A stretch of 64,000 nt of DNA, from assembly GCA_016188005.1 (NCBI GenBank), contig JACPIQ010000121.1:11866-75865 (forward strand), given 5' to 3'. The notes under the pieces are model-generated. The model was given only the letters and a program-made list of their open reading frames with translations. It searched no databases and had not been told where the DNA came from. Shown here piece after piece: positions 283-61,418 of this stretch (positions within the stretch are counted from its first letter, which is position 1; each line of letters starts with the position of its first letter). Source of the stretch: Candidatus Rokuibacteriota bacterium. GTDB lineage: Bacteria > Methylomirabilota > Methylomirabilia > Rokubacteriales > CSP1-6. A program made the position numbers and the translations under genes.

Positions 283-296
283 GAAGGAAGGGCAAT

Positions 297-8137: not shown

Positions 8138-8256
8138 CCCTCCGGCGGGGCGAGTGATGACGCGCGCGCTAATCGACCGGCGTGGGGTGGAGGCCCAGCG
8201 GCTGGAGCCGTGCGGCGAGGGTGATCTCGTGGCCGCCGGGGCGGAGACGGGGACCG

Positions 8257-10143
8257 ATGGCAGCTAACACCCGGTTCGTCGGAGGCACCGCCCACCACCT
8301 CCTCGCCAGCGTGGCCGAAGGCGCCCGGGCCGGGAGCGCCGAGGCGCTCGCGCGTGTGCGGGAGGCCGTGGCCGCGCGCCGCGCCGAGCGGGGCGGACAC
8401 GACGAGTGGGCGCGCCTCTGCGAGGAGGCCGGGGAGTTCGGGCTGGCGCTGTCCGAGTACCAGCTGGCGATCCGCGACGACCCGGACGACGCGGATGCCC
8501 TCGGGCGCCTGGCCGCGCTCTACGAGGAGCGTGGCGAGCCGGAGCACGCGGTCGAGTGCGCCGAGCGGCGCTTCCGCCTGCGCCCCGAGGACATCGGGGC
8601 GCTGGGGGCGCTGATCGACCTGCTCATCGGCGCGGGGGCGTTGGAGCGGGCGGGTGAGGTCGTCGAGTCGGCCCGGGGGCGGATCGATCCGGTCCAGGTG
8701 GACGCCGTGGCCGGCCGGCTCCGGACGGCGCGCAGCGTCCTGGACGACGAGGAGGAGGGCGATGCCGAGGAGCCGGCGGCGCCCACGGATGCCGATGTGG
8801 TGCGCTTTGCCCACCTCTTCGCCGGCCGCGAGAACGTCTACGCTCGGCAGTGGTGGAACCAGGATGGGCGCGGCGGGTACACGCCGGTGCACGAGCCGTT
8901 CACCTTCCAGGTGGCGCGCAACCACCTCCTCGGCAACGTTACCGTCGGCACCTACCCGATCCGGCTCGACGGCACGGCCACCTTTTTCGCCGTGGATCTC
9001 GACATCACCAAGCGCGCCCTGGAGACGGCACGCTCGAGCGTGGCCGAAGCGCGGCGGCTCCGCGACCTGGTCGCACGCGAGGCCCGCCGGATGCTGGATG
9101 ACCTCGCGGTGCTGGGCCTGCCCGCGGTGCTCGAGGACTCCGGCTACAAGGGGCGGCACCTGTGGGTGTTCCTGGAGGCCCCCGAGGACGCCGCGGTCCT
9201 GCGGCAGCTGGGCTCACTTCTCCTGGGAGCCTGCGGACCCACCTCGCCCGATCTCCACGCCGAGTTCTTCCCCAAGCAGGCCAGCACGGGCGCAGGCATC
9301 GGCAACCTGATCAAGCTGCCGCTGGGCATCCATCGCCGGACGGGTCGCTGGAGCCGGATCTTCCGGGCCGACGGCCTCGCCGAGCCCGCGCCGCACGCGG
9401 CGCTGCGCCAGCACCCGCGGGTGTCCCGAGAGGCGCTGCACGCGGCCATCGCCGCGCTGAAGCGCCGCGAGTCGGGACCGCGGCCGGCGGCGCCGGAGGC
9501 CGGGGAGGGCGCCGAGCAGGCGCCCGCATGGACGGCGGCGGACTTCGACACGCATCCCGAGGTGGGCCACCTGATGGGACACTGCCCGGTCCTGGTGGCC
9601 CTGCGAGACAAGGCTGAGAAGAATCGGCGCCTGACCCACGACGAGCAGGTCGTCCTGGCTCACACCGTGGGTCACAGCGGGGCGGGCGTCCTGGCCGTGA
9701 ACTACCTGCTGGACCGCTGCGTGGACGTGGCCCCGACGGCGGCGCTCAGGACGCCCCTCTCGGGCAACCCGATGTCGTGCGCGAAGATCCGCAAGCGAAT
9801 CCCGCACGTGAGCGGATCGGTGGCGTGCAACTGCCGCTTCGACTTCGCCCAAGACCACTACCCGACCCCGCGCCTGCACCTGCGAACGCTCGATCCGGCC
9901 GCGCTGGCGCAGCCCGCGCCCCGCGTCGAACCGGCGTGGGACCCGGCCGAGCGGGCGCGCCTCCTCGGCGGCCTGCGCCGACGCCAGGCTGAACTGGAGC
10001 GGGAAAGCAAGACGGTCGAGGGGGAGCTGCTCTGCCACCTCGAGCGCTCGGGGCTCGACATCCTCGAGCTCGATGAGGGAGTCTTCCGCGTGCGCCGCGA
10101 TGGGATCGTGGCGGCGCTCGAGTGGGAGCCGAAGACGGCGTGA
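8257..10143 (+). CDS. CRISPR-associated primase-polymerase (CAPP-like): N-terminal TPR-like domain + archaeo-eukaryotic primase (AEP/PrimPol) + PriCT-like + Cys/His knuckle
   Basis: AEP motif I FFAVDLD, motif II SGYKGRHLWVF, then GIGNLIKLPLGIH. PriCT-like segment GHCPVLVALRDKAEKNRRLTHDEQVVLAHTVG and CAKIRKRIPHVSGSVACNC. N-terminal ~190 aa form TPR-like helices. RBS GGAGACGGGGA precedes ATG 8257. The 3' end overlaps the cas1 start. Confidence 0.7.
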   Translation: MAANTRFVGGTAHHLLASVAEGARAGSAEALARVREAVAARRAERGGHDEWARLCEEAGEFGLALSEYQLAIRDDPDDADALGRLAALYEERGEPEHAVECAERRFRLRPEDIGALGALIDLLIGAGALERAGEVVESARGRIDPVQVDAVAGRLRTARSVLDDEEEGDAEEPAAPTDADVVRFAHLFAGRENVYARQWWNQDGRGGYTPVHEPFTFQVARNHLLGNVTVGTYPIRLDGTATFFAVDLDITKRALETARSSVAEARRLRDLVAREARRMLDDLAVLGLPAVLEDSGYKGRHLWVFLEAPEDAAVLRQLGSLLLGACGPTSPDLHAEFFPKQASTGAGIGNLIKLPLGIHRRTGRWSRIFRADGLAEPAPHAALRQHPRVSREALHAAIAALKRRESGPRPAAPEAGEGAEQAPAWTAADFDTHPEVGHLMGHCPVLVALRDKAEKNRRLTHDEQVVLAHTVGHSGAGVLAVNYLLDRCVDVAPTAALRTPLSGNPMSCAKIRKRIPHVSGSVACNCRFDFAQDHYPTPRLHLRTLDPAALAQPAPRVEPAWDPAERARLLGGLRRRQAELERESKTVEGELLCHLERSGLDILELDEGVFRVRRDGIVAALEWEPKTA

Positions 10144-11192
10144 GCCGGCTGGCGCTGATGGAGCAGGGCGTGGCGCTGGGTGTGGACGGCGAGGTGCTGA
10201 CCATCGAGCGCGGCGACCGCGTGATCGACCGGGTGCGCGTCGCGGAGATCGACCAGGTCCTGGCTTTCGGGGCGATCACCCTGCTGCCCGGCGCCGTCGC
10301 ACTGCTGCTGCGGCGCGGCATCGACACCGTCTACCTGACGGCGCGCGGCCGCTACCGGGGGCGGCTGGTGGGCGGCTTCAACCGGAATGTCGAGCGGAGG
10401 CTCGCCCAGTTCGAGCGGCTCCGGAGTGGGCCCACCGCAGTGGATCTGGCGCGGAGGATCGTTGCCGGGAAGATCGCCAACCAGCGGGCGCTCCTCCTGC
10501 GCGCCCAGCGGGAGCACCAGCAGCCGGAACTGGCCCAGGTCGCCGGGCAGATGCGGCGGGCCATGGACAGCCTGCCCGCTGCGGATGACCTGGATCGGAT
10601 CCGCGGCGCCGAGGGCCAGGCCTCGGCGGCCTACTTCGGCGCCTTCGGGCGGTGCCTCCGGAACCCGGCCTTCACGTTCAGCGTCCGGACTCGCCGGCCG
10701 CCGCGCGATCCCGTCAATGCGCTCCTGAGCTTCGGCTACGCCATGCTGACGACCGTGGTGGAGTCCGCAGTGCTGCGCGCCGGGCTCGACCCCATGCTAG
10801 GCTCGCTCCACGCCCCGGAGTTCGGGCGGCCGTCGCTGGTGCTGGACCTCATGGAAGAGTTCCGTCCCGTGCTGGTGGACGCCCTGGCGCTCCGGCTCGT
10901 GAACCGGCGCGCGGTGGCGCGCGAGGACTTCGAGGAGTTCGTCGAGGAGCCCGGCGACCCGCTCGGGGAAGCAGAGAGGGAGGAAGACGGCACTGCCCCC
11001 GCCGTCTGGCTCGGAGAGACGGGACGGCGTATCTTCTTCCGGGCGTGGGGCCGGCGCCTGCGCGAGACGCACTGGTACGAGTCCAGGCGCCAGACGCTGA
11101 CCTTCGAGCAGATTGTGCGGCAGCAGGTCTATCATCTGGTGAGGGTGCTCATGGGCGAGGACACGGCGTACTATCCCTTCACGGTCAGGTAG
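10122..11192 (+). CDS. cas1: Cas1 integrase
   Basis: Typical Cas1 N-terminus (LALMEQGVALGVDGEVLTIERGDRV...VLAFGAITLLPGAVALLLRRGIDTVYL) and length. The start may be GTG 10140 or ATG 10158. Confidence 0.9.
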   Translation: MGAEDGVSRLALMEQGVALGVDGEVLTIERGDRVIDRVRVAEIDQVLAFGAITLLPGAVALLLRRGIDTVYLTARGRYRGRLVGGFNRNVERRLAQFERLRSGPTAVDLARRIVAGKIANQRALLLRAQREHQQPELAQVAGQMRRAMDSLPAADDLDRIRGAEGQASAAYFGAFGRCLRNPAFTFSVRTRRPPRDPVNALLSFGYAMLTTVVESAVLRAGLDPMLGSLHAPEFGRPSLVLDLMEEFRPVLVDALALRLVNRRAVAREDFEEFVEEPGDPLGEAEREEDGTAPAVWLGETGRRIFFRAWGRRLRETHWYESRRQTLTFEQIVRQQVYHLVRVLMGEDTAYYPFTVR

Positions 11193-11196
11193 GGCA

Positions 11197-11484
11197 ATGG
11201 GATCCCGGCACCTCGTGATCAGCTACGACGTGACCGATGACCGGATCCGCGCGCGGCTGGCCAAACGGCTGCGAGGGTACGTGGACCGAGTCCAGAAGAG
11301 CGTGTTCGAGGGCCCCGTCGAGGAGGGGCGGCTGGAGGACCTTCGGGCGGGGATCCGGCAGGCCATAGACCAGGAGGCGGACTCGGTTAGGGTCTACAGC
11401 CTGTGCGCCCGGTGCCAGGGGGCGACGGAGATCATAGGCACGGGCGTGTACGTCGAGCGGGAGGAGGGCGATGTCATCGTCTGA
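11197..11484 (+). CDS. cas2: Cas2
   Basis: LVISYDVTDDRIRARLAKRLRGYVDRVQKSVFEG...DSVRVYSL, 95 aa, lies immediately after the cas1 stop. Confidence 0.9.
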   Translation: MGSRHLVISYDVTDDRIRARLAKRLRGYVDRVQKSVFEGPVEEGRLEDLRAGIRQAIDQEADSVRVYSLCARCQGATEIIGTGVYVEREEGDVIV

Positions 11485-11700
11485 TGGGCGCGGATCTCGA
11501 CGGGCCAGGGGGGCGTCGCGGAAGTGGGCATCCCTCCTCACCTGGGCCATGACGATCCGCGCGAGCTGTAAGGGCTTGAACGGGAACACGTGTTCGGCTG
11601 ACCGGGCGCGTGCGGGGAGGGGGTGGTCCGCGACGAGAGGCAGGGATCCGCGCTCGACAGTGCTCGATGTCCCGTGCGACGAGGGTTTGGCAGGCGCGGG
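11485..11700 (+). promoter_or_regulatory. CRISPR leader (216 bp between cas2 and the first repeat), unusually GC-rich
   Basis: Sits between the cas2 stop and repeat 1. The degenerate repeat is at the opposite end of the array, which places the leader here. Confidence 0.5.
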
Positions 11701-12404
11701 GACCGAATGGACGCCCCGAACGAAAGGGGATTACGACGCGCGCAATTCCTCTAATACGTACATGCTGCACGACCGAATGGACGCCCCGAACGAAAGGGGA
11801 TTACGACGAGCCGGATCTCGTTCTGTCCAACGCGGATGAGAGACCGAATGGACGCCCCGAACGAAAGGGGATTACGACCGCGTGATCAGGAGGATGGGCA
11901 TGATCAGGCTGGGAGACCGAATGGACGCCCCGAACGAAAGGGGATTACGACTCGAACAACGGCTCGCACTCCCACTCCTCGACCTCGACCGAATGGACGC
12001 CGCGAACGAAAGGGGATTACGACCTTGGCCATTCTTCCAGTCGCGAGCCGAGGGAGTCGCCGACCGAATGGACGCCCCGAACGAAAGGAGATTACGACCC
12101 CCATCAGCGTCGGTCCCGGCTTTGCCGCGCGCCGGCGAGCTGACCGAATGGACGCCCCGAACGAGGGGGATTACGACCACCTGCGCCTCCAGGTGCCGGA
12201 TGCGGTCGGCGGGACCGAATGGACGCCCCGAACGAAAGGGGATTACGACATCGGGCCGGCCATGAGTCACGCCTCCAAGGTGCTGCGTGGGAGACCGAAT
12301 GGACGCCCCGAACGAAAGGGGATTACGACGTCCATCAGCGCGCCGAGGCCGAGGGTGGCGAGACACAGACCGAATGGACGCCCCGAACGAAAGGGGCGTC
12401 CAGA
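11701..12404 (+). CRISPR. CRISPR array: 9 repeats + 1 degenerate terminal repeat; consensus GACCGAATGGACGCCCCGAACGAAAGGGGATTACGAC (37 bp); spacers 33,34,36,35,38,43,35,43,38 bp
   Basis: Repeats start at 11701, 11771, 11842, 11915, 11987 (CC>CG), 12062 (GGG>GAG), 12142 (36 bp, AAAG>GG), 12213, 12293, and a degenerate copy at 12368 (29/37 match). Same strand as the cas genes. The 3' 8 nt ATTACGAC would give the crRNA 5' tag. Confidence 0.95.
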
Positions 12405-12502
12405 TCCGAGAGGCGGCGCCGCCGACTCGGCCATGGGGGCGGGACACTCGCGGAACGGGCGGCCGCCTTCGGTGTTTCGCCTGCGCGCGGCGGCGCGAGA
12501 TC

Positions 12503-33133: not shown

Positions 33134-33254
33134 CGGGCTGCCGCGCGCGCGAAGGCGTGGTCCGCATGCTTCTGACCACATATGACGTAGGCTGCGAGGA
33201 CGGGAACACGGGGACGGCGTGCCCCTCGGCCCGATCCTGGAAAGGCTCGATCGC

Positions 33255-34535
33255 ATGACGGCGAATCCGATGAAGCCCTGCGTGGCCGTGGTCAAGAGCG
33301 AGGACGTCGCCCTCGGGGTTCGGCGGGCCGTGGAGCATGTCGAGGCGGCGGAAGGGGTGCGCGTCCGGGGCACGGTGCTGGTGAAGCCCCTGTGGGACTA
33401 CTACTCGCTCGGCTGGGATGCCGGCCTGCGGGAGCCGCCAGCGGGCTGGAGCGAGGCAGGCGGCCTCTTCCAGCCGTACACGGACCCCCGGGTGGTCGCG
33501 GCCCTGGTGCGGCTCTTCCTGGAGCGCGGCGCCGCGCGAGTCGTCGTGGGCGACGGGCCGTTGCACGAGACCCCGGCCAGATGGTTTGCCGAGCGGACGG
33601 GCATGGACCGGGTGGTCAGGGAGGCCGGGGGGGAGCTCGCATACTTCGACGAGGAGCCCCTGGTCGAGGTCGCCGTGCCGGACGCGCGGGTCTTGCCGAC
33701 GATCCAGCTCCCCAGGGTGGCCCTCGAGTGCGACCTGTTCGTGAACGTTCCCAAGCTCAAGACACACCCGATGCACGGATTGACCGCCGGGTTCAGCAAC
33801 CTCTACGGCCTCCTGCCCCACGAGGAGAGGCATCGGATCCTGAAACAGCCGCAGTTCTCCTTCGCGATGATCGACGTGATGAAGCTGTTCCGGGAGAAGG
33901 CGCTGACGGTGGTGGATGCGGTGATTGCCATGGAGGGGGATGGGCCCCGGCTCGGCAATCCGGTCCGGATGGACGTGGTGCTGGCGGGGCGCGATCCCGT
34001 GGCCGCGGACACCATCGCGGCGATGGTGGCGGGCTTCGATCCGATCGAGGGTCCACTGGAGGTGATCCCCGCCGCACGGCATGCCGGGCTGGGCGTCGGG
34101 GACCCCGCGATGATCGAGATCAGGGGCGAGAGCGTCGCCGCAGTGGCCCGGCCGCTGGAGCGGACCGCGCACCCGTGGATCCACCCGAGCCCCAATGTGA
34201 AGACCTACGCCGGAGGGGACTCGTGCGGAGCCCGACCCTGGATCCAGTACACGCCGATGCCCTGGGAGATCGAGGCGGGGAAGCGATACGCGCTGGTGCT
34301 GGGCCGCACGCCGGCCGTCCCGAAGGACCTCGACGTCGATGAGGTGTGGGTGCTCGGGGATGTCACGCTGAAGTCGGTGAAGGTGAAGAGCCTCGAGGCC
34401 CGGGGCATCCGCGTCAGGGTCGTTCCCGGCTGCCCTCCCGCCCGGCTCAAGGAGTACCTCAGGCTCCACAAGTGGGAGTACCCTGTGGAGCAGGTGCGCT
34501 GCAAGTACGAGTGCTGCGCCTCGATGCGCGGCTGA
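33255..34535 (+). CDS. DUF362 domain protein with Cys-rich C-terminal extension (paralog 1)
   Basis: VLVKPLWDY...VVVGDGPLHET...DLFVNVPKLKTHPMHGLTAGFSNLYGL matches the DUF362 fold. C-terminal SCGARPW...PGCPP...CKYECC. Confidence 0.65.
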   Translation: MTANPMKPCVAVVKSEDVALGVRRAVEHVEAAEGVRVRGTVLVKPLWDYYSLGWDAGLREPPAGWSEAGGLFQPYTDPRVVAALVRLFLERGAARVVVGDGPLHETPARWFAERTGMDRVVREAGGELAYFDEEPLVEVAVPDARVLPTIQLPRVALECDLFVNVPKLKTHPMHGLTAGFSNLYGLLPHEERHRILKQPQFSFAMIDVMKLFREKALTVVDAVIAMEGDGPRLGNPVRMDVVLAGRDPVAADTIAAMVAGFDPIEGPLEVIPAARHAGLGVGDPAMIEIRGESVAAVARPLERTAHPWIHPSPNVKTYAGGDSCGARPWIQYTPMPWEIEAGKRYALVLGRTPAVPKDLDVDEVWVLGDVTLKSVKVKSLEARGIRVRVVPGCPPARLKEYLRLHKWEYPVEQVRCKYECCASMRG

Positions 34536-34575: not shown

Positions 34576-35886
34576 ATGACGAAGGAAGGGCTGACCGGGA
34601 AGTCCGTCGTGTCGATGGCGCAGGACGCCGACCCCCACCGCGCGGTGGCCGGCGCGCTGGACCTGATCGGCGGCGCAGGCCACCTCCTCCGGGGCGCCAG
34701 GACGGTGCTGATCAAGCCCAACGTCGGCTATTACTCGCTGGGCGTGGAGACCGGGCTCAAGACGCTCCCGGAAGGCTTCGACCCCGACGGGAACTTCCTG
34801 CCATCCACGGACAAGAGGGTGGTCGGAGCGCTCGTCCGGCTGTTCAAGGAGGCGGGGGCGGAGCGGGTGGTGGTGGCGGATGCGCCCGTGCACGAGACCG
34901 ACGGGGCATGGGTCTTCGCGCGCACCGGCCTGGCGGAGGCGGTCACCGCCGCGGGCGGCGAGATGCGCGACCTCGCGCTGGAGCCCAAGGTCAAGGTCGA
35001 GGTGCCGGGCGGGACGGTGCTCAAGACGATCAAGGTGCCGAAGGTGGTCATGGACGCCGACCTCTTCGTCAACGCTCCCAAGCTCAAGACCACGCGCGTC
35101 GGGCTCCTGACCCTCGCCTTCAAGAACATGTTCGGCGTCCTCCTGCACGAGGACCGCCACCCGTATCACCGTCTCCCGGAGCACTACTACGTCCTCGCCG
35201 ACCTGGTGAAGCTCGTGAAGGGCCGCGACCTGACCGTGGTCGACGCCGTGATCGCCATGGACGGCTACGGGCCGCGGTTCGGAGATCCGGTCCAGATGGA
35301 CCTCGTCATCGCCGGCCGCGACCCCGTGGCCACGGAGGCCGTCGCCTCCATGGTGGCGGGCTTCTCGCCCGCCGAAGGCCCCATCGAGGTGCTCCCGGTC
35401 GCCGAGCGCGAGGGCCTTGGAACCCGTGATCTCGCCGCGATCGAGGTGCGGGGCACGCAGATCCAGGAGGTGCGGCGGAGCTTCAAGCGGCCGCCGATGC
35501 CGTGGCTCCACCTGGACCCGCGGGTGAAGACCTACCCGGGAGGGACCTGCTGGGGGTGCGGGCTCTGGATGCAGTACAGCCCCATCCCCTCGGAGCTCGA
35601 GGACGGGCGACGCTACGCCCTCGTCACGGGCCAGGCCCCCGCCCTCCCGGACAGGCTCGACGCCGACGAGGTGTGGCTCCTGGGCAACTGCGCGATCGAG
35701 TCGGTGAGCATCGGAAAGCTGCGAAAGAAGGGGCACAAGGTGGTGTCCCTGCCTGGCTGCAACCCGTATCGCCTGGAGCCGTACCTCGAGGTTCACAAGT
35801 GGGAAGCGCCGTACTCGCCCGTGTGCCGCCATCCGTGCTGCCGGCCCGGCAAGGTCGAGAAGGAGCCCGCCTCGCCCCGCGCGTGA
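34576..35886 (+). CDS. DUF362 domain protein with Cys-rich C-terminal extension (paralog 2)
   Basis: VLIKPNVGY...VVVADAPVHETD...DLFVNAPKLKTTRVGLLTLAFKNMFGV. C-terminal CWGCGLW...PGCNP...CRHPCC. Roughly 45% identical to the upstream paralog. Confidence 0.65.
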   Translation: MTKEGLTGKSVVSMAQDADPHRAVAGALDLIGGAGHLLRGARTVLIKPNVGYYSLGVETGLKTLPEGFDPDGNFLPSTDKRVVGALVRLFKEAGAERVVVADAPVHETDGAWVFARTGLAEAVTAAGGEMRDLALEPKVKVEVPGGTVLKTIKVPKVVMDADLFVNAPKLKTTRVGLLTLAFKNMFGVLLHEDRHPYHRLPEHYYVLADLVKLVKGRDLTVVDAVIAMDGYGPRFGDPVQMDLVIAGRDPVATEAVASMVAGFSPAEGPIEVLPVAEREGLGTRDLAAIEVRGTQIQEVRRSFKRPPMPWLHLDPRVKTYPGGTCWGCGLWMQYSPIPSELEDGRRYALVTGQAPALPDRLDADEVWLLGNCAIESVSIGKLRKKGHKVVSLPGCNPYRLEPYLEVHKWEAPYSPVCRHPCCRPGKVEKEPASPRA

Positions 35887-47574: not shown

Positions 47575-48917
47575 CGGCAGTGACGGCGCCGCCCGCGCTC
47601 CGCGACACGCTCTGCATCGAGTGGGGGGCGTGCCCGCCCGGCTGCCGCGACTGCGTCGAGGCCTGTGCTTTGGCGCGCGGCGTGGCGCGGGTCACGGCGC
47701 TGGACCTGGCGGAGGTGTCCTTCCACGGCGCGCTGACGTGCGGGCAATGCGGGGAGCCGGCCTGCCGGGACGCGTGCCCTACCGGCGCCATCGTGCGCGA
47801 GGAGTCGGGCGTGGTTCGCCTCGATCAGGAGCGCTGTGTCGGCTGCGGCGCCTGCGCGGGGGCCTGCGCCTGGGGCGGAATCACGCTGGACGCGGTCACC
47901 GGTCGCGCGTCCAAGTGCGACACCTGCGGCGGCCGGCCCGCGTGCGCCCTGGCCTGCACGACCGGCCGCCTCCGGTGGGTGGAAACCTCGGCGCTGGCGC
48001 GACGGCTCGGCCATCCCGATCCCTTCACGCAGGGCGTGAGCCTCTGCCCGGGCTGTGCGGCGGAGCTGGGCTTCCGCACGGCCTTTCGCGCCATCGGCCC
48101 GGACGCCGTGGTCTTCGCCGCCCCCGGCTGCGCCTGCATGCTCGCCTGCGGCCTCGGCACTGCCGCCACGACGCGGCTGCCCAGCGTCATGTCACTCATG
48201 ACCAATGTCCCGTCGCTCATGACCGGGGTGGCGCGCCAGCTGCGCCGCTCAGGCGCCAGGACGCGGGCGGTGGCCTTCGTGGGAGACGGCACGACCGCGG
48301 ATGTGGGGTTCCAGCCCCTGTCGGGCGCGGCGGAGCGGGGCGAGCCGATCGTCTACATCTGCTACGACAACGAAGGGTACATGAACACGGGCGCTCAGCG
48401 CAGCAGCACGACGCTCCAGGGGGCGCGGACCATGACGACGCCCGTCGGTCCGGGGCAGGCGGGAAAGAGGCAGGTGCCCAAGGACGTGGCCGTGCTCATG
48501 GCGATGCACGGCGCGGCCTACGTGGCCACGGCCAGCGTGTCGCATCCGGAGGACTTCGCGGCCAAGCTCGAGCGCGCGCTTGCCGCGGAGGACGGGCTCG
48601 CCTACATCCATCTCTATGCCCCCTGCCACGTGGGCTGGCAGGCCCCGATGGACGCCGCGGTGGAGATCGCCCGGATGGCCGTCCTGACGCGTGTCTTCCC
48701 CCTCTGGGAGGCGCGGCGCGGCCGCTTCCGACTGACGCATCCCATCGCCCACCCCCGCCCGCTCGGGGACTTCGCGGGGCTGATGGGCCGCCTCCGTCAT
48801 CTCGACGAGGACGGGCTGCGCGCGCTTGGCCGGGCGGTGGAGGAGCGCTACCGCCGGGTCGAGGCCCTCTGCGCCGCGCTGCCATGGCAGGAGCCGGGCG
48901 CGGCGGGTGGGCGATAA
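47571..48917 (+). CDS. porB: Fusion of an N-terminal multi-[4Fe-4S] ferredoxin domain with the 2-oxoacid:ferredoxin oxidoreductase beta (TPP-binding) subunit
   Basis: N-terminal ~140 aa with several Cys clusters (CPPGCRDCVEAC, CGQCGEPACRDACP, CVGCGACAGAC, CDTCGGRPACALAC). Then the PorB TPP domain (GCAAELGFR...VGDGTTADVGF...YICYDNEGYMNTG). GTGA overlap with the upstream gene. Confidence 0.8.
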   Translation: MTAVTAPPALRDTLCIEWGACPPGCRDCVEACALARGVARVTALDLAEVSFHGALTCGQCGEPACRDACPTGAIVREESGVVRLDQERCVGCGACAGACAWGGITLDAVTGRASKCDTCGGRPACALACTTGRLRWVETSALARRLGHPDPFTQGVSLCPGCAAELGFRTAFRAIGPDAVVFAAPGCACMLACGLGTAATTRLPSVMSLMTNVPSLMTGVARQLRRSGARTRAVAFVGDGTTADVGFQPLSGAAERGEPIVYICYDNEGYMNTGAQRSSTTLQGARTMTTPVGPGQAGKRQVPKDVAVLMAMHGAAYVATASVSHPEDFAAKLERALAAEDGLAYIHLYAPCHVGWQAPMDAAVEIARMAVLTRVFPLWEARRGRFRLTHPIAHPRPLGDFAGLMGRLRHLDEDGLRALGRAVEERYRRVEALCAALPWQEPGAAGGR

Positions 48918-48918
48918 C

Positions 48919-49638
48919 GTGTTCAACCGGACGATCCCGCTCTGGTACCAGCTGGCGCAGATGCTCCGCGCCGAGATTCTCGCGGGTACCCTGGCCGCAG
49001 GGGAGCGCGTGCCCGCCGAGGTGGCGCTGGCCCGCCGCTACGAGGTGAGCGTGGTGACGGTGCGCCAGGCACTGCGGGCGCTGGAGGACGAGTCGCTGAT
49101 CTCGCGCCAGCGTGGGCGCGGCACCTTCGTGACGCCGGGGCCGCATCACCGCAAGGAGCTGCGGCTGATGGGCTCCATCCAGTCCGTCATCGCCCAGCAG
49201 TACAGCGAGGAAACGGAGGTGCTCGAGCAGAGCACGGTGCCCGTGCCGCCGGCGCTGGCGCGACACTTCCCGGGGGAGCGCGATCTCTGCTTCTTCCGGC
49301 GGCTCAGGCGTGACCAGGGCGTACCCCTGTCCTATGCGCTCAACTACGTCCGGCCCGAGTACGGCGGCCAGATCGACCCCGCGATGCTCCGGCGGGACCC
49401 GATGCTGAAGATCGTGCGGGACGTGCTCGGGGTGAAGCTCTCCGATGTGCAGATCTCCATCGAGGCGCGGCGCGCGCAGCAGGACATCGCCGGGCCCCTG
49501 GGTGTGGACATCCTGAGCCCCGTGCTCTTCTTCTCGGGCGTGGTGTTCGACCTCGCGCGGCGCGTGGTGGATGTGGCCTGGATCTACTACCGGGCCGACC
49601 GTTTCACCTTCACCCTGGACGTGGACGTGAGGAGCTGA
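48919..49638 (+). CDS. GntR-family (HutC/UTRA subfamily) transcriptional regulator
   Basis: wHTH LWYQLAQMLRAEILAGTLAAGERVPAEVALARRYEVSVVTVRQAL followed by a UTRA-like C-terminal domain. Confidence 0.8.
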   Translation: MFNRTIPLWYQLAQMLRAEILAGTLAAGERVPAEVALARRYEVSVVTVRQALRALEDESLISRQRGRGTFVTPGPHHRKELRLMGSIQSVIAQQYSEETEVLEQSTVPVPPALARHFPGERDLCFFRRLRRDQGVPLSYALNYVRPEYGGQIDPAMLRRDPMLKIVRDVLGVKLSDVQISIEARRAQQDIAGPLGVDILSPVLFFSGVVFDLARRVVDVAWIYYRADRFTFTLDVDVRS

Positions 49639-53327: not shown

Positions 53328-53476
53328 CGACTCGGGCGCCATGACGCCCACGGCGGACATCGTCATCCCCGGCTCCTCGTGACGGCGCCGGGAGGGTGCC
53401 CGACCCGCCGGGTGCGGCCCTGGCGCTCCTGCGCTATGCTGATGGCATGCCGACACGACCAGGGAGGATGATGACC

Positions 53477-53986
53477 ATGCGCACGATCTTGATCGCAGCC
53501 ACTGTCCTGGCGTTTCTCTCACCCGCCCTCGTCGCCGAGGCGCAGATGAAGCCGATGGCACCTCCGGCCCCCGCCCAGGGCCAGGCGCCGGCAGCCTCGC
53601 AGCCGTCTGACCAGCAGTCCCAGCACCACCCGCAGGCGGCGCAGCAGAAGGCGCAGCCGAAGGCCCAGCAGAAGCCGCAACAGCAGCCTCAGCACACGAT
53701 GATGGGCGGCATGATGGGCCAGGGCATGATGGGTGGCATGATGATGTGCCCGATGATGGGGCACGCGATGATGGGCGGTCAGGGCATGCAGGGCATGATG
53801 GGGCAGGGGATGATGGGTGGCCAGGGGATGCCGGGCATGACGCGCGGAAGCGGCACGATGCGCGGCCCCCTCGACATGTCGGACCCCAAGGCCGCCGCCC
53901 GGACGCTCCGGCTCCGCGGCGATCTCATGAAAGCCATGGGCGAGGTCATGCTCAAGCACGCCGAGGCCCTCGCGCAGGAGAAGTAG
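53477..53986 (+). CDS. Secreted methionine-rich low-complexity protein (MGxGMM repeats), putative metal (Cu(I))-binding
   Basis: RBS GGAGG 9 nt upstream of ATG 53477. Signal peptide MRTILIAATVLAFLSPALVAEA. Q/P-rich linker. Then MMGGMMGQGMMGGMMMCPMMGHAMMGGQGMQGMMGQGMMGGQGMPGM and a C-terminal helix. Confidence 0.5.
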   Translation: MRTILIAATVLAFLSPALVAEAQMKPMAPPAPAQGQAPAASQPSDQQSQHHPQAAQQKAQPKAQQKPQQQPQHTMMGGMMGQGMMGGMMMCPMMGHAMMGGQGMQGMMGQGMMGGQGMPGMTRGSGTMRGPLDMSDPKAAARTLRLRGDLMKAMGEVMLKHAEALAQEK

Positions 53987-55051: not shown

Positions 55052-58000
55052 TCAGCCGAGGGCGGCGAGGCTCTCGCGGCAGCGCTTGGCGAGGGGGCGC
55101 ATCCCCAGCTCCTCGGCGAGGTCCCGCGCCTGCTCGTAGTGCCGGGCGGCGCTGTCGCGGTCGCCGCGGTGGCGGCAGACCTCGCCGAGAATCCAGAGCG
55201 CCCGGGCCTCGGCCGACCGCTCCGCGAGGCGATGGGCGAAGGCGATGGCCTCGCGGGCAGAGGCCTCCGCCAGGTCCAGCTCGCCGGCGTGGAGCTGGGC
55301 CTCCGCCACGTGGCGGACGTGATCGCCACGCTCGACGAGGGCCGCCGCCTTTTCCTGGAGCTCGACGCACTCCCGGGCTGCCGCGATCGCCTCCTGATGG
55401 CGCCCCGTCAAGGAGTAGGCGGAGGAGGCCGCCCCGAGGGCCCGCATGAGCTGCCCCGCGAACTTCCGCTCCCGGCAGATCGCGACCGCCCCTTCCAGCA
55501 CCCCGAGGGCCTCTCCGGCCCTGCCCCTCTCGGTGAGGAGCCGGCCCCGGGCGATCATGAGCGGCACCTCGCTGTAGAGATGCCTGGCGGCCTGGACGAC
55601 GCGCTCGCCGCGCTCGATGAGGGCCAGCGCCCGCTCCGGATCTCCCATTGCCAGCAGGCACAGCGCCCCGAGCGCGCAGGAACCACAGTAGGGGAGGCCC
55701 GACAGCCCGAATCGCTCCGTGGCCCGCGGCCCTTCCAGGCGCTCGATGACGCGGCTGAAATGCTCGAGGGCCAGCGGGTACTGGCCGACGGCCAGGTGGG
55801 CGCAGCCAATGTAATAGTGCCCGGTGACGAGGAGCCCCAGATCCCCGCGCCGCTCGGCGGTCTCGAGGCCGCGCCGCCCGTAGGCGATGGCCTCGCGCTG
55901 CTCCCCCTTGGCCCAGTGGTACTGGGTGAAGAACGAGTAGACCACGTCGAGGCGGTCCGTCTCGCCGTGCCGCGTGGCGAGCCCCTCGGCCTCCTTGAAG
56001 ATCTCGAAGAGGCGGTCCAGCTGTCCCGCGCGCCAGAGCGGGGCGCGGAGCGCGAGGCGCACGTCCACGCCGAGGCGGCCGGTCTCGGGGCTCTCGGGCA
56101 GCCGGCCGAGGGCCTCGAGGGCCTGCTCGTAGAACTCGACAGCGCGCGCGTCCGTGCAGAGGGCCGCCGCGCGGTCCCCGGCCTGCCTGGCGTAGCGGGC
56201 GGCCTTCGGCCACACCTCGCCGCGGACGAAGTGATGGGCCAGCTCCTCGACGTGCTCCTCGACACGGTCCGCGTGCAGCTCCTCGATGGTGGCGCCGATG
56301 CGGGCGTGGAGGTCCCGGCGCCGCGCGAGGAGGATGGACTCGTAGGCCACGTCCTGGGTGAGGACGTGCTTGAAGACGTACTCGAGGTCGGCGGCACCCA
56401 TCTTCTCGTAGACAAACTCCAGCGCCTTGAGATCCCCCAGCGCGCGCTCAACGCGATCCGTCGCCTCGGCGACGCGCCGGAGGAGGCGGAGGGCGAACTC
56501 GCGGCCGATCACCGAGGCGATCTGCACCGTGCGCTTCTGCTCCTCGCCGAGCCGGTCGATGCGCGCGGCGATCAGGTCCTGGACGCGGTCGGGCACCACG
56601 ATGGCGGAGGCCGGGCACGCCAGCGTGAGCCGGCCGCCCTCGGGATGCACGGCGCCGCTCTCCACCAGCGCGCGACCGATCTCCTCGAGGAAGAAGGGAT
56701 TGCCCTCGGCCTTGCGCGCGATGATCGCCGCCAGCTCGTCCGGGAGGTCCCCGATGCCCAGCGTGGCGCGGACCAGCCGGTGGGCGTCGGCGTCCTCCAG
56801 CGGCTCGAGGACGAGCCGGGTGATGTAGGTGTGCTCGGGGAAGCGCGGCCGGTACGAGGGGCGCCAGGTCAGCACCAGGAGGATCGCCTCGCCGGCGATG
56901 CCGTTGATCAGCTCCGCCAGGTAGTCCTCGGAGGCGCTGTCGATCCACTGCAGATCCTCCACCACCAGCACCACGGGTCGCCGCTGGCTCGACCGGCGAG
57001 TGAGCTGGCTGATGGCGCGGAATATCCGCGCGCGGCGCTCGACCGGATCCATGGCGGCGATGGCGGGATCGCCCGGGTCCACGGAGAGCGCATAGCGCAG
57101 GTACGGGGCCAGCTCGCCGGGCGGCTCGCCCAGCGCCTTGAGGCCCCGCGTGACCTTCTCGATGATGGCTGACTCGCTGTCCGCCTCGCTGACAGCGAAG
57201 CCCTGACGGAGGCAGTCGGCGATCGGGAGCATCGCCGTGGACTGCCCGAAGGAGAGACAGCGTCCCTCCAGCCAGGTCGCCGCTCCTCCCGCCTGGCGGC
57301 GAAGCTCCAGCAGCAGCCGGGACTTGCCGATGCCGGCCTCGCCCACGAGGGACACCACCTGGCCGCGGCCGGCCCGGGCGGCGCTCCAGGCCCGCGCGAG
57401 CGTGCCGAGCGCCTCGCGGCGCCCCAGCAGCGGCGTCAGGGGCCGGCTCTCGGCCACGCTCCTGGGTTCGCCCAGCGCCCAGGCCGCCACGGGCTCGGCG
57501 CGGTTCTTGAGCACGACCGTGCCGAGGGAAGTCAGGTGGAAGTACGGCTCGATGAGCCGGCGCGTGGTATCGGCCAGGACGACCTGGCCCGGCTCGGCCA
57601 TCTGCTGCATCCGCGCGGCGACGTTCGTGGTGTCGCCGACGGCGGTGTAGTCCATGCGCAGGTTGTCGCCGATGGCCGCGACCACCACGAGCCCGGTGTT
57701 GAGTCCCAGGCGCACGCGGAAGTCCACACCGCGCCGGCCCTTGAGCTCCTCGCGGTAGGCTCCGAGCGCGCGCTGCATCCCCAGGGCTGCCAGTGCCGCC
57801 CGCCGGGCGTGGTCCTCGTGGGCGACCGGGGCGCCGAAGAGCGCCATGAGCCCGTCGCCCAGGAACTGGTTCACCGTGCCCTCGTAGCGGTGCACCGACG
57901 CGAGCATGAGCTCGAAGGCGCGGTTCATGAGGGTGTGGACCTCCTCCGGGTCGAGGCGCTCCGCCAGCGAGGTGAAGCCCGAGACGTCCGCGAAGAGGAC

Positions 58001-58327
58001 GGTGACCTGCTTCCGCTCGCCCTGGAGCGCCGTCCTGTCCTTGAGGATGCGCTCGGCCAGGTGCTGGGGGGTGTAGCCGCTGGGAGCCGCGCGACGCCGG
58101 TCGTCCTCGGAGCCGAGGCCGGCGTCGCGCGGGGCCGGGGGCGGATCGGCCGCGGCGCCCACGCCGCCCGCCAGGCGCGCGCCGCAGTCGCCGCAGAACT
58201 TCTTGCCGGGGGAGAGGCGGGCCCCGCAGGCCGGGCAGACGGTGTCCAGGCGCGCGCCGCACTCCTCGCAGAACTTGGCGCCGGGGCGCGTGGCGGCTCC
58301 GCAGGCTGAGCAGGCCATCCGGGTCAT
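55052..58327 (-). CDS. Multidomain signalling protein: double zinc-ribbon + class III adenylyl/guanylyl cyclase + STAND/AAA NTPase + TPR repeats
   Basis: N-terminus CSACG...CEECG / CPACG...CGDCG. Cyclase domain ([14 protein letters not shown]...[11 protein letters not shown]...[16 protein letters not shown]). P-loop [11 protein letters not shown]. Long C-terminal TPR region. 1092 aa. Confidence 0.8.
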
Positions 58328-58410
58328 TGTGCCACGGTGGGGCCGACGAGAGAAGGCTTGCGGCCCCGTCACGCAGCGGGGTAGGCTACCGGATGGCGGT
58401 AGCGCCGCAG

Positions 58411-58540
58411 CGGGGTGACCCGACCGTCTGGCCCACGGTCAACATGCGGCAGCATGGGCGGGGAGAGGGGGAGACGCTGGCGGAGCGAGGTGACGCGACC
58501 CTCTCGCCCACGGTCAACATGCGGCAGCATGTTGAAGATG
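58411..58540 (+). repeat. Copy A of a ~130-bp duplicated cis-element (two ~40-bp boxes TTGACGCGACC-N-TCGCCCACGGTCAACATGCGGCAGCATG) in the divergent intergenic region upstream of the thiolase gene
   Basis: About 93% identical to copy B at 59790..59920. Box 1 holds IR GACCGT-N7-ACGGTC. Box 2 holds IR CAACATG-N6-CATGTTG. Ends ~17 nt before ATG 58558. Confidence 0.4.
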
Positions 58541-58557
58541 GTAGATGGAGACCAGTC

Positions 58558-59745
58558 ATGAGCGGACTCGGCGGGAAGGTTGCCATCATCGGCACCGGCA
58601 CGATCAAGTTCGGAGAGAACTTCCATCAGAGCCTCACCGACATGATCTTCGAGGCCGTCACCCTCGCCCTGGCCGACGCCGGCATCGAGCGCGGCCGGCT
58701 CCAGGCCGGCTGGCTCGGCTGCTACGAACCGATGCTCTACGGCTTCGAGGGCAATTCCGGCGCCTTCGTCTCAGACCCGCTCAATCTCTTCCCCATTCCC
58801 GTCACGCGCGTGGCGGCCTACTGCGCCACGGGGATCGAGGCCGTGCGCAACGCGGCGCTGGCCGTGGCCTCGGGGGAGTACGACGTCGTGCTGGCGGTGG
58901 GTGCGGAGAAGATGCGGGAGGTGCCCTCCCGCGGGTCGCTGGTGGCACAGGCCGTGAACCGCGGACACCCGTTGCTGGCCAAGGGGCGCACGGCACCCGG
59001 CATGTTCGGGCTGCTGGCCGCGCGCTACTTCAAGGAGTACGGCGCCGGGGAGGAGGCGCTCGGGGCCGTGGCAATCAAGAACCACTACCACGGCTCCCTC
59101 AACCCGAAGGCGCATTTCCAGAAGGAGATCACGGCCGAGCAGCACGCCCGCGCGCCGAGGGTGGCCGAGCCGCTCGGGCTCTTCGACTGCTGCCCCACCA
59201 CGGACGGGGCCGCGGCGGCCATCCTCACCCGCGCCGAGCTGGCGCCGACATTCACCGACAGATACTCGATCATCCGCGGTATCGCCTGTGCGGTGACCGC
59301 CGGCTACTGGAACACGCAGTTCGACCCGTCGTGGAACTTCACCTCGTTCCGCGCCACGCGCGAGGCTGCCAGGGCCGCCTACACCATGGCCGGGGTGACC
59401 AATCCCGCGAAGCAGATCAAGGTGGCCGAGTGCCACGACTGCTTCACCATCACCGAGATCGTGAACTACGAGGACCTGGGCTTCTTCGAGCCCGGGGCCG
59501 GCTGGCGTGCCGCCCAGAGCGGCGCGACGCGGCTCGGGGGCTCGCTGCCCGTGAACACGTCGGGTGGGCTCAAGTCGTGCGGCCACCCCATTGGCTCCTC
59601 GGGCGTGCGGATGATCAACAACATCCACGACCAGCTCCTGGGCCGTGCCGGGAAGATGCAGGTCCCTGGCGCCGACATGGGGCTGGCGCACAACCTCGGC
59701 GGTCCCGGCGCGGTCTCGGCCGTGGCCGTGCTCTCCCAGCCGTAA
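58558..59745 (+). CDS. Thiolase-like protein (SCP-x / nonspecific lipid-transfer-protein thiolase type), second copy
   Basis: KVAIIGTGTIKFGE N-terminus and thiolase C-terminal motifs (CHDCFTITEI, NTSGGLKSCGHPIGSSG). Paralog of the 30026 gene. Confidence 0.8.
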   Translation: MSGLGGKVAIIGTGTIKFGENFHQSLTDMIFEAVTLALADAGIERGRLQAGWLGCYEPMLYGFEGNSGAFVSDPLNLFPIPVTRVAAYCATGIEAVRNAALAVASGEYDVVLAVGAEKMREVPSRGSLVAQAVNRGHPLLAKGRTAPGMFGLLAARYFKEYGAGEEALGAVAIKNHYHGSLNPKAHFQKEITAEQHARAPRVAEPLGLFDCCPTTDGAAAAILTRAELAPTFTDRYSIIRGIACAVTAGYWNTQFDPSWNFTSFRATREAARAAYTMAGVTNPAKQIKVAECHDCFTITEIVNYEDLGFFEPGAGWRAAQSGATRLGGSLPVNTSGGLKSCGHPIGSSGVRMINNIHDQLLGRAGKMQVPGADMGLAHNLGGPGAVSAVAVLSQP

Positions 59746-59789
59746 CGGACGTTCGCGCGCGGCTGGCGCCGGGCGGAGCCCCGGCGCGG

Positions 59790-59920
59790 CGGGTTGACGC
59801 GACCGTCTCGCCCACGGTCAAGATGCGCCAGCATGGGTGAGGAGAGGGGGAGACGCTGGCGCAGCGAGTTGACGCGACCCTCTCGCCCACGGTCAACATG
59901 CGGCAGCATGTTGAAGATAA
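59790..59920 (+). repeat. Copy B of the duplicated ~130-bp two-box cis-element, upstream of the small basic-tailed ORF
   Basis: Same two-box structure as copy A. Followed by RBS AAGGGAGG and ATG 59932. Confidence 0.4.
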
Positions 59921-59931
59921 GGGAGGCAGAG

Positions 59932-60333
59932 ATGGCGGAGCTCACGCGGCGCTACATCGTCATGCCGATGGCCACCGAGGCCCCGTTCGACCCGTTGGAC
60001 CCGGAGGCGGTGTTCGTCCTCAAGCCCCGGAAGGACCCGGCGGCGCTCAGGGCGCTTCAGGCGTACCGCGACCACTGCTACCCGGAACTGCGCCGAGATC
60101 TCGACGCCTGGATCGAGACGATCAAGGCGAGCCCCGTGGTCCGCGGTGGGGTCGGGGAGAGGAACGCCCGGTACCTGGCCTCCCGGCCCCAGCCTGCAAG
60201 CGCGCCCGCGCAGGGCTCCGCCGTGCCTGCCGCCCGCCCGACCCGGGCCGGGGTCAAGCCCAAGCCCAGGCCTCGGGCAAAGCATCAGGGACGGAAGGCC
60301 AAGCCACCGTCGCGGAAGAGGAAGCAGCACTAA
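59932..60333 (+). CDS. Hypothetical small protein with Lys/Arg/Pro-rich basic C-terminal tail
   Basis: Good RBS. 134 aa. Tail VKPKPRPRAKHQGRKAKPPSRKRKQH. No recognisable catalytic motif. Confidence 0.45.
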   Translation: MAELTRRYIVMPMATEAPFDPLDPEAVFVLKPRKDPAALRALQAYRDHCYPELRRDLDAWIETIKASPVVRGGVGERNARYLASRPQPASAPAQGSAVPAARPTRAGVKPKPRPRAKHQGRKAKPPSRKRKQH

Positions 60334-60470
60334 CCGTCAGCGGCCCGAGAGGTATTCCCGCAGCCTGCCCGAAGGCCCCGGCGTGGAGGGCATCGCCCTG
60401 CGGGAGATGCCGGGCGCTGGCTTGCGCTCGCGGTCATCCGGCCGCTATCCTTAGCCTGGAGGGCAGGCCA

Positions 60471-61418
60471 ATGGTCGAACGGAGCACGGCCAGGGTGCCC
60501 GCGTCACCCAGGGTCCCGTACTGGATGCGGGCCAGCCGCGGGCGCAGCCGACCCCACCTCGAGATCCTCAGCGAGGAGGATGCCAGCCCCGCCGTCCGCG
60601 AGTGTTTCGACGAGATCACCGCCACCCTCGGCTTCCCGGTCGTCAACGTCATCTTCCGCGCCTTCGCCAGGTACCCGCGCTTCCTCGCCCTGTCCTGGGA
60701 CCTCCTCAAGCCCAACGTGCTCACCCAGGACCTCTTCGACAAGACCCAGGTGCTCCGCCGTCAGGCGCAGCTCGTGGTGCGCGAGGGGCTCGGCGTCGGG
60801 GACCACCGGGCGGTGCTCCGGATGCGTGGCTCCTCCGACGACGCGCTCGGTCGAATCCGCGCCGTCCTCGACTTCTTCCTCTACGGGGACCCATTCCTCC
60901 TGCTCATCGCCTCGGCGCTGCAGTCCTCGCTGTCGGGGCACCCGCTTTCCGGCAAGCCGTGGGCGCACCTGCTGCCGCTGCACACCAATCCCACCCGCTT
61001 CCAGGAGCTCAGGCTCACGGAGATGGAGGAGGCGCCTCCCGCGGTCCAGACGATCTACAGCGAGATCATGCAGGCCCACGGGGGGACCTTCGTCCCGACG
61101 GACTACCGCGCGCTGGGGCGCTGGCCCGAGTGCCTGGCCGTGGTGTGGCAGGACTGGAGGCAGCGCATGCAGAACCCGGCCTACGAGGCCGGGGTCCGGC
61201 AGCTCAACGAGCTGGCCCTGGCGCTGGCCCAGGACCTGCCCTTCGGCTTCGCGCTGTCCCCCCAGACCCTTGTGCGGGCCGGCTTTACTCCCCTCCAGGT
61301 TTCCGATATCCTGGCGACGGTCGACTTCTTTCAGGGCCTCCTGCCGGCGCTCATCGTGAACATCACCGCGTTCAGGATCGGCCTCGAGGGGAGCGGCCGG
61401 CCGGCACCCGGCGCCTGA
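60471..61418 (+). CDS. DehI-like (group I DL-2-haloacid dehalogenase family) two-repeat helical protein
   Basis: Internal pseudo-repeats AVRECFDEITATLGFPVVNVIFRAFARYPRFLALSWDLL and AVQTIYSEIMQAHGGTFVPTDYRALGRWPECLAVVWQDW resemble the DehI pseudo-dimer motifs. Confidence 0.45.
   Translation: MVERSTARVPASPRVPYWMRASRGRSRPHLEILSEEDASPAVRECFDEITATLGFPVVNVIFRAFARYPRFLALSWDLLKPNVLTQDLFDKTQVLRRQAQLVVREGLGVGDHRAVLRMRGSSDDALGRIRAVLDFFLYGDPFLLLIASALQSSLSGHPLSGKPWAHLLPLHTNPTRFQELRLTEMEEAPPAVQTIYSEIMQAHGGTFVPTDYRALGRWPECLAVVWQDWRQRMQNPAYEAGVRQLNELALALAQDLPFGFALSPQTLVRAGFTPLQVSDILATVDFFQGLLPALIVNITAFRIGLEGSGRPAPGA

Follow-up and report, generated by a model that had tools for sequence, protein, structure and literature searches.

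What has placed the same piece of non-coding DNA directly in front of two adjacent genes? The question arises in a 64,000-nucleotide (nt) stretch of contig JACPIQ010000121.1 (assembly GCA_016188005.1, positions 11,866 to 75,865) of a Candidatus Rokuibacteriota bacterium, here called the window, where a 137-nt repeat precedes a thiolase gene and, again, the small open reading frame (ORF) that follows it. A first-pass annotation offered two interpretations: a shared pair of operators or upstream activating sequences for a dedicated regulator, or a structured 5' leader. The evidence presented here favours the leader. With a probability of roughly 0.55, we consider the element to be a lineage-restricted hairpin repeat akin to the repetitive extragenic palindromic (REP) elements and the interspersed repetitive units of mycobacteria (MIRUs), which lies in leaders and spacers near ribosome-binding sites, is co-transcribed with its neighbours and most likely acts on mRNA stability or translation.

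A repeat search of the window and subsequent alignment placed copy A at 58403-58539 and copy B at 59782-59918, both on the forward strand and 92% identical over 137 nt, close to the ~93% originally reported. Copy A lies between the thiolase promoter and the thiolase ribosome-binding site. Copy B is located in the spacer between the thiolase gene and the small ORF, where its 3' end adjoins the Shine-Dalgarno sequence AAGGGAGG (59919-59926, forward strand). Each copy consists of two boxes of ~42 nt that recur with a period of 75 nt, and the 40-nt box pattern has exactly four matches in the 64-kb window, at 58417, 58492, 59796 and 59871, against a chance expectation of 0.00. The upstream boxes, A1 (58415-58456) and B1 (59794-59835), both contain the inverted repeat GACCGT-N7-ACGGTC; A1 carries the core CCCACGGTCAACATGC with an incomplete right palindrome arm (GCATGGGC), and the palindrome of B1 is likewise incomplete. 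In the terminal boxes, A2 (58490-58539) and B2 (59869-59918), the reported CAACATG-N6-CATGTTG proved to be part of a larger structure: a perfect palindrome, TCAACATGC-GGCA-GCATGTTGA, in which two 9-nt arms flank a 4-nt centre (58514-58535 in copy A and 59893-59914 in copy B, both on the forward strand) and for which a stem-loop is predicted; the inverted-repeat search listed the perfect pair as such for copy B, and the coordinates in copy A were read from the sequence. The paired boxes and inverted repeats of the first-pass annotation were thus recovered, as was its view of the element as non-coding, non-random and situated directly 5' of two adjacent genes.

The differences between the copies are unevenly distributed. 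All 11 mismatches fall within the first 88 nt, and the last 49 nt (58491-58539 in copy A), which comprise the downstream box, are identical; by our own arithmetic, the chance of such a distribution if mismatches were evenly spread is ~0.008, that is, (88/137)^11. A motif of ~12 nt, GCnGCnnGTTGAC, occurs three times per unit, in forward, inverted and forward orientation. As a separate observation, the boxes are separated by a G-rich spacer (GGAGAGGGGGAGACG) that complements a C-rich box segment in both copies, pairing 58460-58469 with 58499-58508 in copy A (10 nt at 90%) and 59798-59813 with 59846-59861 in copy B (16 nt at 81%).

Both genes downstream of the copies are real genes. Copy A ends 18 nt before the start codon of an SCP-x-type thiolase gene (58558-59745, forward strand; Pfam Thiolase_N and Thiolase_C_1), and copy B ends 13 nt before that of a conserved hypothetical gene encoding 133 amino acids (59932-60333, forward strand), whose product has more than 1000 homologues, including a 100% match to the Rokubacteria protein HYV93_23715 from a metagenome-assembled genome (MAG). 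Upstream of copy A we predict a sigma-70-type promoter for the thiolase operon (58358-58387, forward strand), formed by TTGCGG (58358-58363), an 18-nt spacer and TAGGCT (58382-58387); transcription would start near 58394. A scan of 58000-60300 for E. coli-type promoters found none. The predicted promoter is conserved in six lineages, namely the window, L034, L037, L043, L049 and L052 (L-numbers denote loci fetched from related genomes and metagenome contigs), with spacers of unrelated sequence. Given this promoter, copy A would lie in the 5' leader of the thiolase mRNA and copy B in an intercistronic spacer. This is the half of the first-pass interpretation that holds: the structured 5' leader is upheld by the conserved promoter upstream of copy A, and the shared operator or activating-sequence pair for a dedicated regulator is not.

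Comparison with relatives revealed that both copies are insertions. Thiolase orthologues with 84-93% protein identity, retrieved through their proteins from four lineages (L037-42, L043-48, L049-51 and L052), showed no element in an nhmmer search. Their promoters consist of TTGCGG or TTGGAG, 17-18 nt of unrelated spacer and TAGGCT or TACCCT, and the distance from the -10 hexamer to the ATG is 23-43 nt, compared to about 170 nt in the window. Because these orthologues combine the same promoter with a short, element-free leader, and because the 137-nt repeat fills the difference, we conclude that copy A was inserted into the 5' leader. The thiolase-small ORF spacer tells the same story: it measures 186 nt in the window, against 85 nt (and no box) in L034 and 11-31 nt in L037, L049 and L052, and these shorter, box-free spacers identify copy B as an insertion too. 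L034 is the closest syntenic relative to retain the thiolase gene (in the order cyclase, thiolase, small ORF, FAH, DehI). Its promoter is present, site A has only a decayed half box (CCCACGGaCAgCATGCG, lacking the right arm), site B has none, and the locus carries a small tandem repeat of its own. More distant homologues of the small ORF are preceded by ordinary TTGCGn-N17-TACnCT promoters, without a box. A 1.2-kb deletion in L002 (1500-2100) and L033 (2620-3000), corresponding to window positions 58393-59625, begins 5 nt past the -10 hexamer and extends into the thiolase 3' end; it has removed copy A and about 90% of the gene, and the thiolase promoter now precedes copy B and the small ORF.

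The box is a family rather than a pair private to these two genes. Scanning one genome per GTDB species with a 20-base core identified it in two Methylomirabilota/Rokubacteria MAGs, at one locus each, and a subsequent scan of metagenome contigs added 26 contigs. L002 is the syntenic locus of Rokubacteria GWC2_70_16, and L001 presents a single box elsewhere, between a 3-hydroxyacyl-CoA dehydrogenase gene (hbd) and a gene for a Tat-signal solute-binding protein. Aligned members yield a consensus wider than the search pattern, cGGnTTGaCnnnACCn(7-8)CCCACGG-TCAACATGC-NNNN-GCATGTTGA-GGAT(G/A)AAT(G/A)AC. The unit of ~70 nt comprises a variable 5' part, GCGG-TTGACn-nnACC-N7/8, followed by the invariant core, CCCACGG-TCAACATGC-N4-GCATGTTGA-GGAT, from whose GGAT onward the sequence forms a purine- and AU-rich tail, GGAT(G/A)AAT(G/A)AC. 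A profile hidden Markov model of the instances detected no additional degenerate copies in the window; in the fetched loci it picked up only two half boxes. Retrieval anchored on the proteins at the junction of hbd with the binding-protein gene uncovered diverged copies that the core pattern had missed: L063 has CCGCGG instead of CCACGG and the loop GACC, L064-66 have a 5-nt loop, GAAGA, and a different tail, and the arms are intact in all of them. In a third lineage at this junction, an acyl-CoA dehydrogenase gene lies upstream and the 34-nt spacer lacks the element. Membership of the window copies in this family, like their status as insertions, is well supported.

The box occurs in at least eight distinct genomic contexts, including both window sites. 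It lies between hbd and either a branched-chain amino-acid binding protein gene or an acyl-CoA dehydrogenase gene (probably one ancestral locus), between a mutase-subunit-like gene (B12-binding type, judged by eye from its C-terminal translation) and a different acyl-CoA dehydrogenase gene, at an FAH-family gene, at an SDR gene, between a hemD-like gene and hemB, at tRNA-Gln/prs (L024), in the thiolase leader (window copy A) and between thiolase and the small ORF (window copy B). In seven of the eight contexts the element is co-oriented with the downstream gene, L024 being the sole antisense case. The hairpin ends 6-34 nt before the downstream start, except in L027, where the distance is 82 nt. 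All copies lie between genes, and only in L025 does the stop codon of the upstream gene fall inside the variable 5' part; most copies are intercistronic, 20-75 nt from a co-directional upstream gene. The copies are dispersed, as the first-pass annotation expected of a REP-like repeat, but they are not placed at random relative to genes. Among the remaining matches, L003 (DASRWT010000106.1, labelled Candidatus Nitrosocosmicus) is identical to the Rokubacteria-like contigs L016 and L018 over the ~140 nt compared, and its contig is probably mis-binned in an archaeal MAG. L005, in an apparent coding sequence of an unrelated genome, was treated as a chance match, and L004 and L006 are presumed to be chance matches as well. 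Viral contigs scanned for the tail motif gave no matches, and the literature searched contained no account of a repeat of this kind from Rokubacteria or Methylomirabilota.

The hairpin is conserved. Across 19 distinct sequences, analysed with RNAalifold and by counting pairs, the nine stem pairs are formed in 98.8% of cells; the arms vary by a single T-to-G change, present in two sequences only, and the compensatory pairs that the proposed covariation check was meant to find number zero. The hairpin is part of the minimum-free-energy fold in all eight contexts tested. Its loop, by contrast, varies in sequence (GACA, GCCA, GGCA, CGCA, AACA, GACC and GAAGA) and in length (4 or 5 nt). Arms that remain intact while the centre shifts in both respects fit a stem-loop better than the operator of a dimeric protein. 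Compared with its L033 orthologue, copy B has conserved boxes and a scrambled G-rich spacer between them; given this different spacer, the spacer/box pairing noted above may be specific to the window lineage.

The 9-bp hairpin is the only structure supported. An outer helix, which appears in some folds and joins the C-rich 5' flank to the GGAT tail or the Shine-Dalgarno sequence, is paired in 66% of cells, and its covariation is no better than that of shuffled alignments. An alternative hairpin, in which the 5' TTGAC end pairs with GGTCAAC, is present in the window and in L001, but since the TTGAC motif is degenerate in half of the copies, it does not constitute a conserved switch. The whole window had no Rfam match at the gathering threshold, and a search of 58300-60000 at E values up to 10 returned nothing credible (best sub-threshold E = 0.41). 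With neither an Rfam match nor compensatory changes, the element does not qualify as a riboswitch or a known cis-regulatory RNA. By-eye comparison to consensus sequences likewise produced no fit to sigma-54, IHF, dif/Xer, parS or attC sites.

A perfect 9-bp dyad is also of typical operator size, and the element might alternatively be the binding site of a global transcription factor. On this account TCAACATGC-N4-GCATGTTGA would be recognized by a repressor of acyl-CoA and branched-chain amino-acid catabolism, of the TetR, GntR or IclR type for instance, acting as a roadblock downstream of promoters or before internal promoters, and the copies would define its regulon. Most downstream genes are indeed catabolic (the thiolase, two acyl-CoA dehydrogenases, an FAH-family gene, an SDR gene and a Liv-type binding protein beside hbd), the arms are invariant without G-U variation, and the inverted copy in L024 shows the same dyad, the arms being self-complementary. 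We nevertheless regard an operator as unlikely. About 30 nt of non-palindromic flank on each side of the dyad are homologous between copies, which argues for copying rather than convergence; the centre in L064-66, 5 nt long instead of 4 between intact arms, would misphase a dimer; and hemB and tRNA-Gln/prs fall outside such a regulon. The element is retained at the junction of hbd and the binding-protein gene, but it is absent from orthologous promoters in relatives (thiolase/small ORF, L034-L052). A symmetric operator would also have no need of the sense orientation observed in seven of eight contexts. No regulator gene is adjacent to the copies: the divergent gene upstream of copy A encodes a zinc-ribbon/adenylate-cyclase/AAA/TPR protein by Pfam, in which no DNA-binding domain was detected, and the nearest helix-turn-helix gene found, of the GntR/UTRA type (48826-49638), is 9 kb away. 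An operator dedicated to the two window genes, as the first-pass annotation proposed, is not supported, with the box at eight or more unrelated loci, missing from the orthologous thiolase and small-ORF loci, variable in the length of its centre and without an adjacent regulator.

The 3' arm of the palindrome runs into GAGGAT. In L001, L007, L021, L025, L064 and the window, the gene's own AGGAGG follows the tail of the element; in L011 (acyl-CoA dehydrogenase) and L014 (FAH-family gene), the GAGG of the element is the sole Shine-Dalgarno-like sequence, 4-11 nt from the ATG. In the mechanism that we favour, the element would be co-transcribed with the downstream gene and act as RNA: the 9-bp stem-loop, abutting the Shine-Dalgarno region, would set the stability or processing of the mRNA and the initiation of translation of the downstream cistron, much as is thought for transcribed REP and MIRU elements, and it would have no role as the operator of a dedicated regulator. 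The 137-nt copies belong to a lineage-restricted, apparently low-copy intergenic repeat family of a Rokubacteria/Methylomirabilota clade; in the window, the ~70-nt unit has been duplicated in tandem, and the 137-nt block that resulted is found twice.

A bolder version of this proposal, which we consider doubtful, sees the element as a portable translation-initiation or leader cassette. Hairpin and Shine-Dalgarno/AU-rich tail, accompanied at many loci by an upstream ORF of 8 codons whose end falls at the gene start, would copy themselves to the start codons of Rokubacteria catabolic operons and so bring these under one post-transcriptional control, exerted for instance by an RNA-binding protein or by ribosome hand-over. 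The element would then be an independent counterpart of the MIRUs equipped with a regulatory stem-loop.

The short ORF itself invites a narrower comparison to MIRUs. In most copies, an ATG in the 5' arm opens an 8-codon ORF, MRQHVEDE, followed by a stop codon. The element could be a start-codon repeat in which this ORF ends at or just before the downstream start and is coupled to it by termination and reinitiation, the insertion being harmless or regulatory. Insertion at start codons, with a coupling of -4, has been described for MIRUs (PMC12548453, citing Supply et al. 1997). Consistent with such a scheme, in 15 of the 18 terminal boxes in sense orientation the ORF, 5-33 codons long, terminates within a range of -4 to +24 nt relative to the downstream start. 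L014, L027 and L063 show ATGA overlaps, L008, L011, L020, L022 and L030 have gaps of 1-3 nt, and codon 9 remains a stop (TGA, TAA or TAG) despite differing tails. Other observations make reinitiation improbable. No Shine-Dalgarno sequence precedes the box ATG, which lies inside the stem, and the peptide is not conserved, the loop insertion in L064 shifting the frame to MRRAC and a stop. The arrangement breaks down in the window: the ORF of copy A runs in frame into the thiolase, and those of copy B and L002 cross the small ORF in another frame, extending for 154-506 codons. The ORF does not start at the stop codon of the upstream gene, unlike MIRU ORFs, and an AT-rich tail beside a ribosome-binding site readily gives stop codons.

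The copies are associated with local duplications: a 75-nt tandem unit in the window and L002/L033, a 20-nt duplication in L003 and a 9-nt one in L019; a second, degenerate unit is present in L064 and L022, and the other loci have a single unit. In L008, L022 and L027 (core sites on the minus strand at 1715-1738, 4109-4132 and 171-194, respectively), a duplicate of the hbd 3' end, 57-78 nt long and starting from an internal ATG (reading MAGRLGRKTGRGFYDYSAK to its stop codon), follows the element; L020 has a partly deleted version. These duplicated ends are near-identical within a lineage and different between lineages, which indicates concerted evolution. Within the window, copies A and B share a spacer version that differs from that of L033, together with an identical terminal box. 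The duplicated gene ends, the tandem units and the spacer shared by A and B form a signature of duplication and gene conversion, not of transposition, and we propose that the spread was recombinational, dragging gene fragments along, rather than transposase-driven. Gene conversion has long been proposed for REPs (Higgins et al. 1988, cited in PMC12306157). Alignments of the G-rich spacer to the start region of the small ORF (its ribosome-binding site and initial codons) gave only marginal scores (9/500 and 46/500 shuffles); the spacer could possibly be a decayed small-ORF start, in which case copy A would derive from copy B. Such repeats mark recombination-prone sites, as seen in the thiolase deletion of L002/L033 and the duplicated hbd ends.

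A selfish REP-like or miniature inverted-repeat transposable element (MITE), moved as single-stranded DNA by a hairpin-recognizing Y1 transposase (RAYT or IS200/IS605-type) and devoid of host function, would explain the conserved hairpin with its conserved 5' flank (CCCACGG), as in REPs and the ends of IS200/IS605 elements. The dispersed, lineage-restricted distribution with presence/absence polymorphism and the triple ~12-nt motif GCnGCnnGTTGAC would fit as well, and the orientation bias would then reflect replication-strand bias. We rate this as improbable. Copies carry fragments of neighbouring genes and sit in tandem duplications, which points to recombination. The inverted repeats are all internal (the palindrome, the boxes with the G-rich spacer, and TTGAC/GTCAA) and none joins the two ends of the element, so that the terminal inverted repeats of a MITE are missing; no target-site duplication was evident at the borders where filled and empty sites were compared. 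Copy number seems low, the two MAGs having a single locus each and the 64-kb window two, and the element has been retained at the junction of hbd with the binding-protein gene across lineages whose binding proteins differ by up to ~10%. No transposase turned up, although no search was aimed at transposases.

Least probable of all is a mobile promoter, in which the 5' TTGACn and a downstream hexamer would drive whichever gene follows: the pair, 92% identical over 137 nt upstream of the non-paralogous thiolase and 133-amino-acid genes, without an Rfam match or association with a known insertion sequence, falls within the operational definition of putative mobile promoters (no less than 80% identity across 50 nt or more, upstream of unrelated genes of one genome; Matus-Garcia, Nijveen and van Passel 2012, PMC3575422), many copies have a TTGAC-like hexamer, and in L022 and L030 a TTGCCG-N18-TAACCT ends 7 nt before the core, but the element itself lacks promoter hexamers, no -10-like hexamer lies 16-19 nt past TTGACn, a TTGnnn-N16-19-TAnnnT scan of 27 locus instances (duplicates included) matched only L022 and L030, the TTGAC hexamer is degenerate in half of the copies, copy A stands downstream of a separate, phylogenetically conserved promoter, and most copies are intercistronic, close behind a co-directional gene.

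Among described repeats, REPs and the bacterial interspersed mosaic elements (BIMEs) that they compose, known from enterobacteria and pseudomonads, come closest. REPs are defined as extragenic sequences that seldom overlap coding sequence, are usually transcribed, form a stem-loop of 14-40 nt in E. coli, and share a common consensus in multiple copies; they are believed to influence how stable an mRNA is and how strongly neighbouring cistrons are expressed relative to one another (PMC12306157). The Rokubacteria element shares most of these defining features: it is extragenic, forms a stem-loop with a shared consensus, has several copies across the family that mostly occupy operon spacers predicted to be transcribed, and shows signs of spread and homogenization by gene conversion. 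It differs in that its palindrome of 22 nt, although of one consensus, is embedded in a conserved unit of ~70 nt with a non-palindromic flank, and in that its copies appear to be few, where REPs number hundreds; no link to a RAYT gene is known. Its location 5' of genes near the ribosome-binding site, almost always in sense orientation, also contrasts with that of REPs, which mostly follow stop codons in either orientation.

The likeness to MIRUs, as these were described by Supply et al. 1997 and summarized in PMC12548453, lies in an intercistronic unit of 40-100 nt that is oriented like the flanking genes, sits at start codons, is prone to tandem duplication and at many loci has a short ORF ending at or near the downstream start. 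The -4 overlap, however, is found in only 3 of 18 boxes and in neither window copy, and overlap with the upstream stop never occurs; MIRUs belong to another phylum, and we claim no sequence similarity to them. More distant parallels are the BOX elements of Streptococcus pneumoniae and the Correia elements of Neisseria, modular co-transcribed intergenic repeats near gene starts with internal modules (such as boxB) and stem-loop potential, which number about 100 or more copies; Correia elements also have terminal inverted repeats and target duplications. The element has no known sequence relationship to either and lacks the terminal inverted repeats and target duplications of the Correia type. 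A perfect hairpin, the hallmark of the element, is to our knowledge not part of the description of MIRUs.

Position, orientation and hairpin conservation were observed directly, as were family membership and insertion status, yet several considerations weigh against reading the element as a hairpin repeat that acts in mRNA. Transcription through the element, and any effect of its RNA, are predicted from sequence. The copy number per genome is apparently low, which is atypical for REPs, and a regulon, too, would be consistent with the enrichment of genes for acyl-CoA and amino-acid catabolism downstream. As a pattern that requires the core retrieved most members, the invariance of the core is partly a product of retrieval; the pattern-independent members are L063, L064-66, L034 and the second box of L022 only. 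An invariant stem offers no compensatory change to prove an RNA helix, and a perfect DNA palindrome is equally expected of a protein-binding site or a hairpin in single-stranded DNA.

The hairpin ATGs also affect gene prediction in the window. An ORF of 506 amino acids (59898-61418) starts at the hairpin ATG of copy B, and a 472-amino-acid version of the thiolase ORF (58327-59745) extends upstream of the gene and reads through the A2 box ATG at 58519. Both are high-GC artefacts, and ORFs that begin at hairpin ATGs should be treated as such in annotation; the real DehI-domain gene corresponds to only the 3' part of the 506-amino-acid ORF, from about 60636.

Elsewhere in the window, a type III-B CRISPR-Cas locus (144-12412) encodes Cmr2/Cas10, Cmr3, RAMP proteins and a Csm6-HEPN protein. 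Within it, the gene for a protein with an AEP-TOTE primase domain (8182-10143) overlaps the start of cas1 (10122-11192), which is followed by cas2 and by a CRISPR array (11691-12412) with 10 copies of a 37-nt repeat; a primase-polymerase gene joined to cas1-cas2 is unusual. An ORF at 53396-53986 without a Pfam match encodes a Met/Gly-rich repeat (GMMGQGMMGG...), with tandem repeats of 12-42 nt in the DNA. A second long repeat, 225 nt at 71% identity (33903-34127 and 35230-35454), lies inside two adjacent ORFs of ~437 amino acids (33219-34535 and 34576-35886), which are probably tandem paralogues.

What first appeared to be a cis-element shared by two adjacent genes is the local view of a small repeat family in an uncultured soil phylum. 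We know of no genetics for Rokubacteria. If the module of hairpin and ribosome-binding site tunes the downstream cistron, operons in this lineage would be rewired by a copied leader rather than by a promoter, and the family would, if this is true, provide a handle on post-transcriptional control in Rokubacteria.

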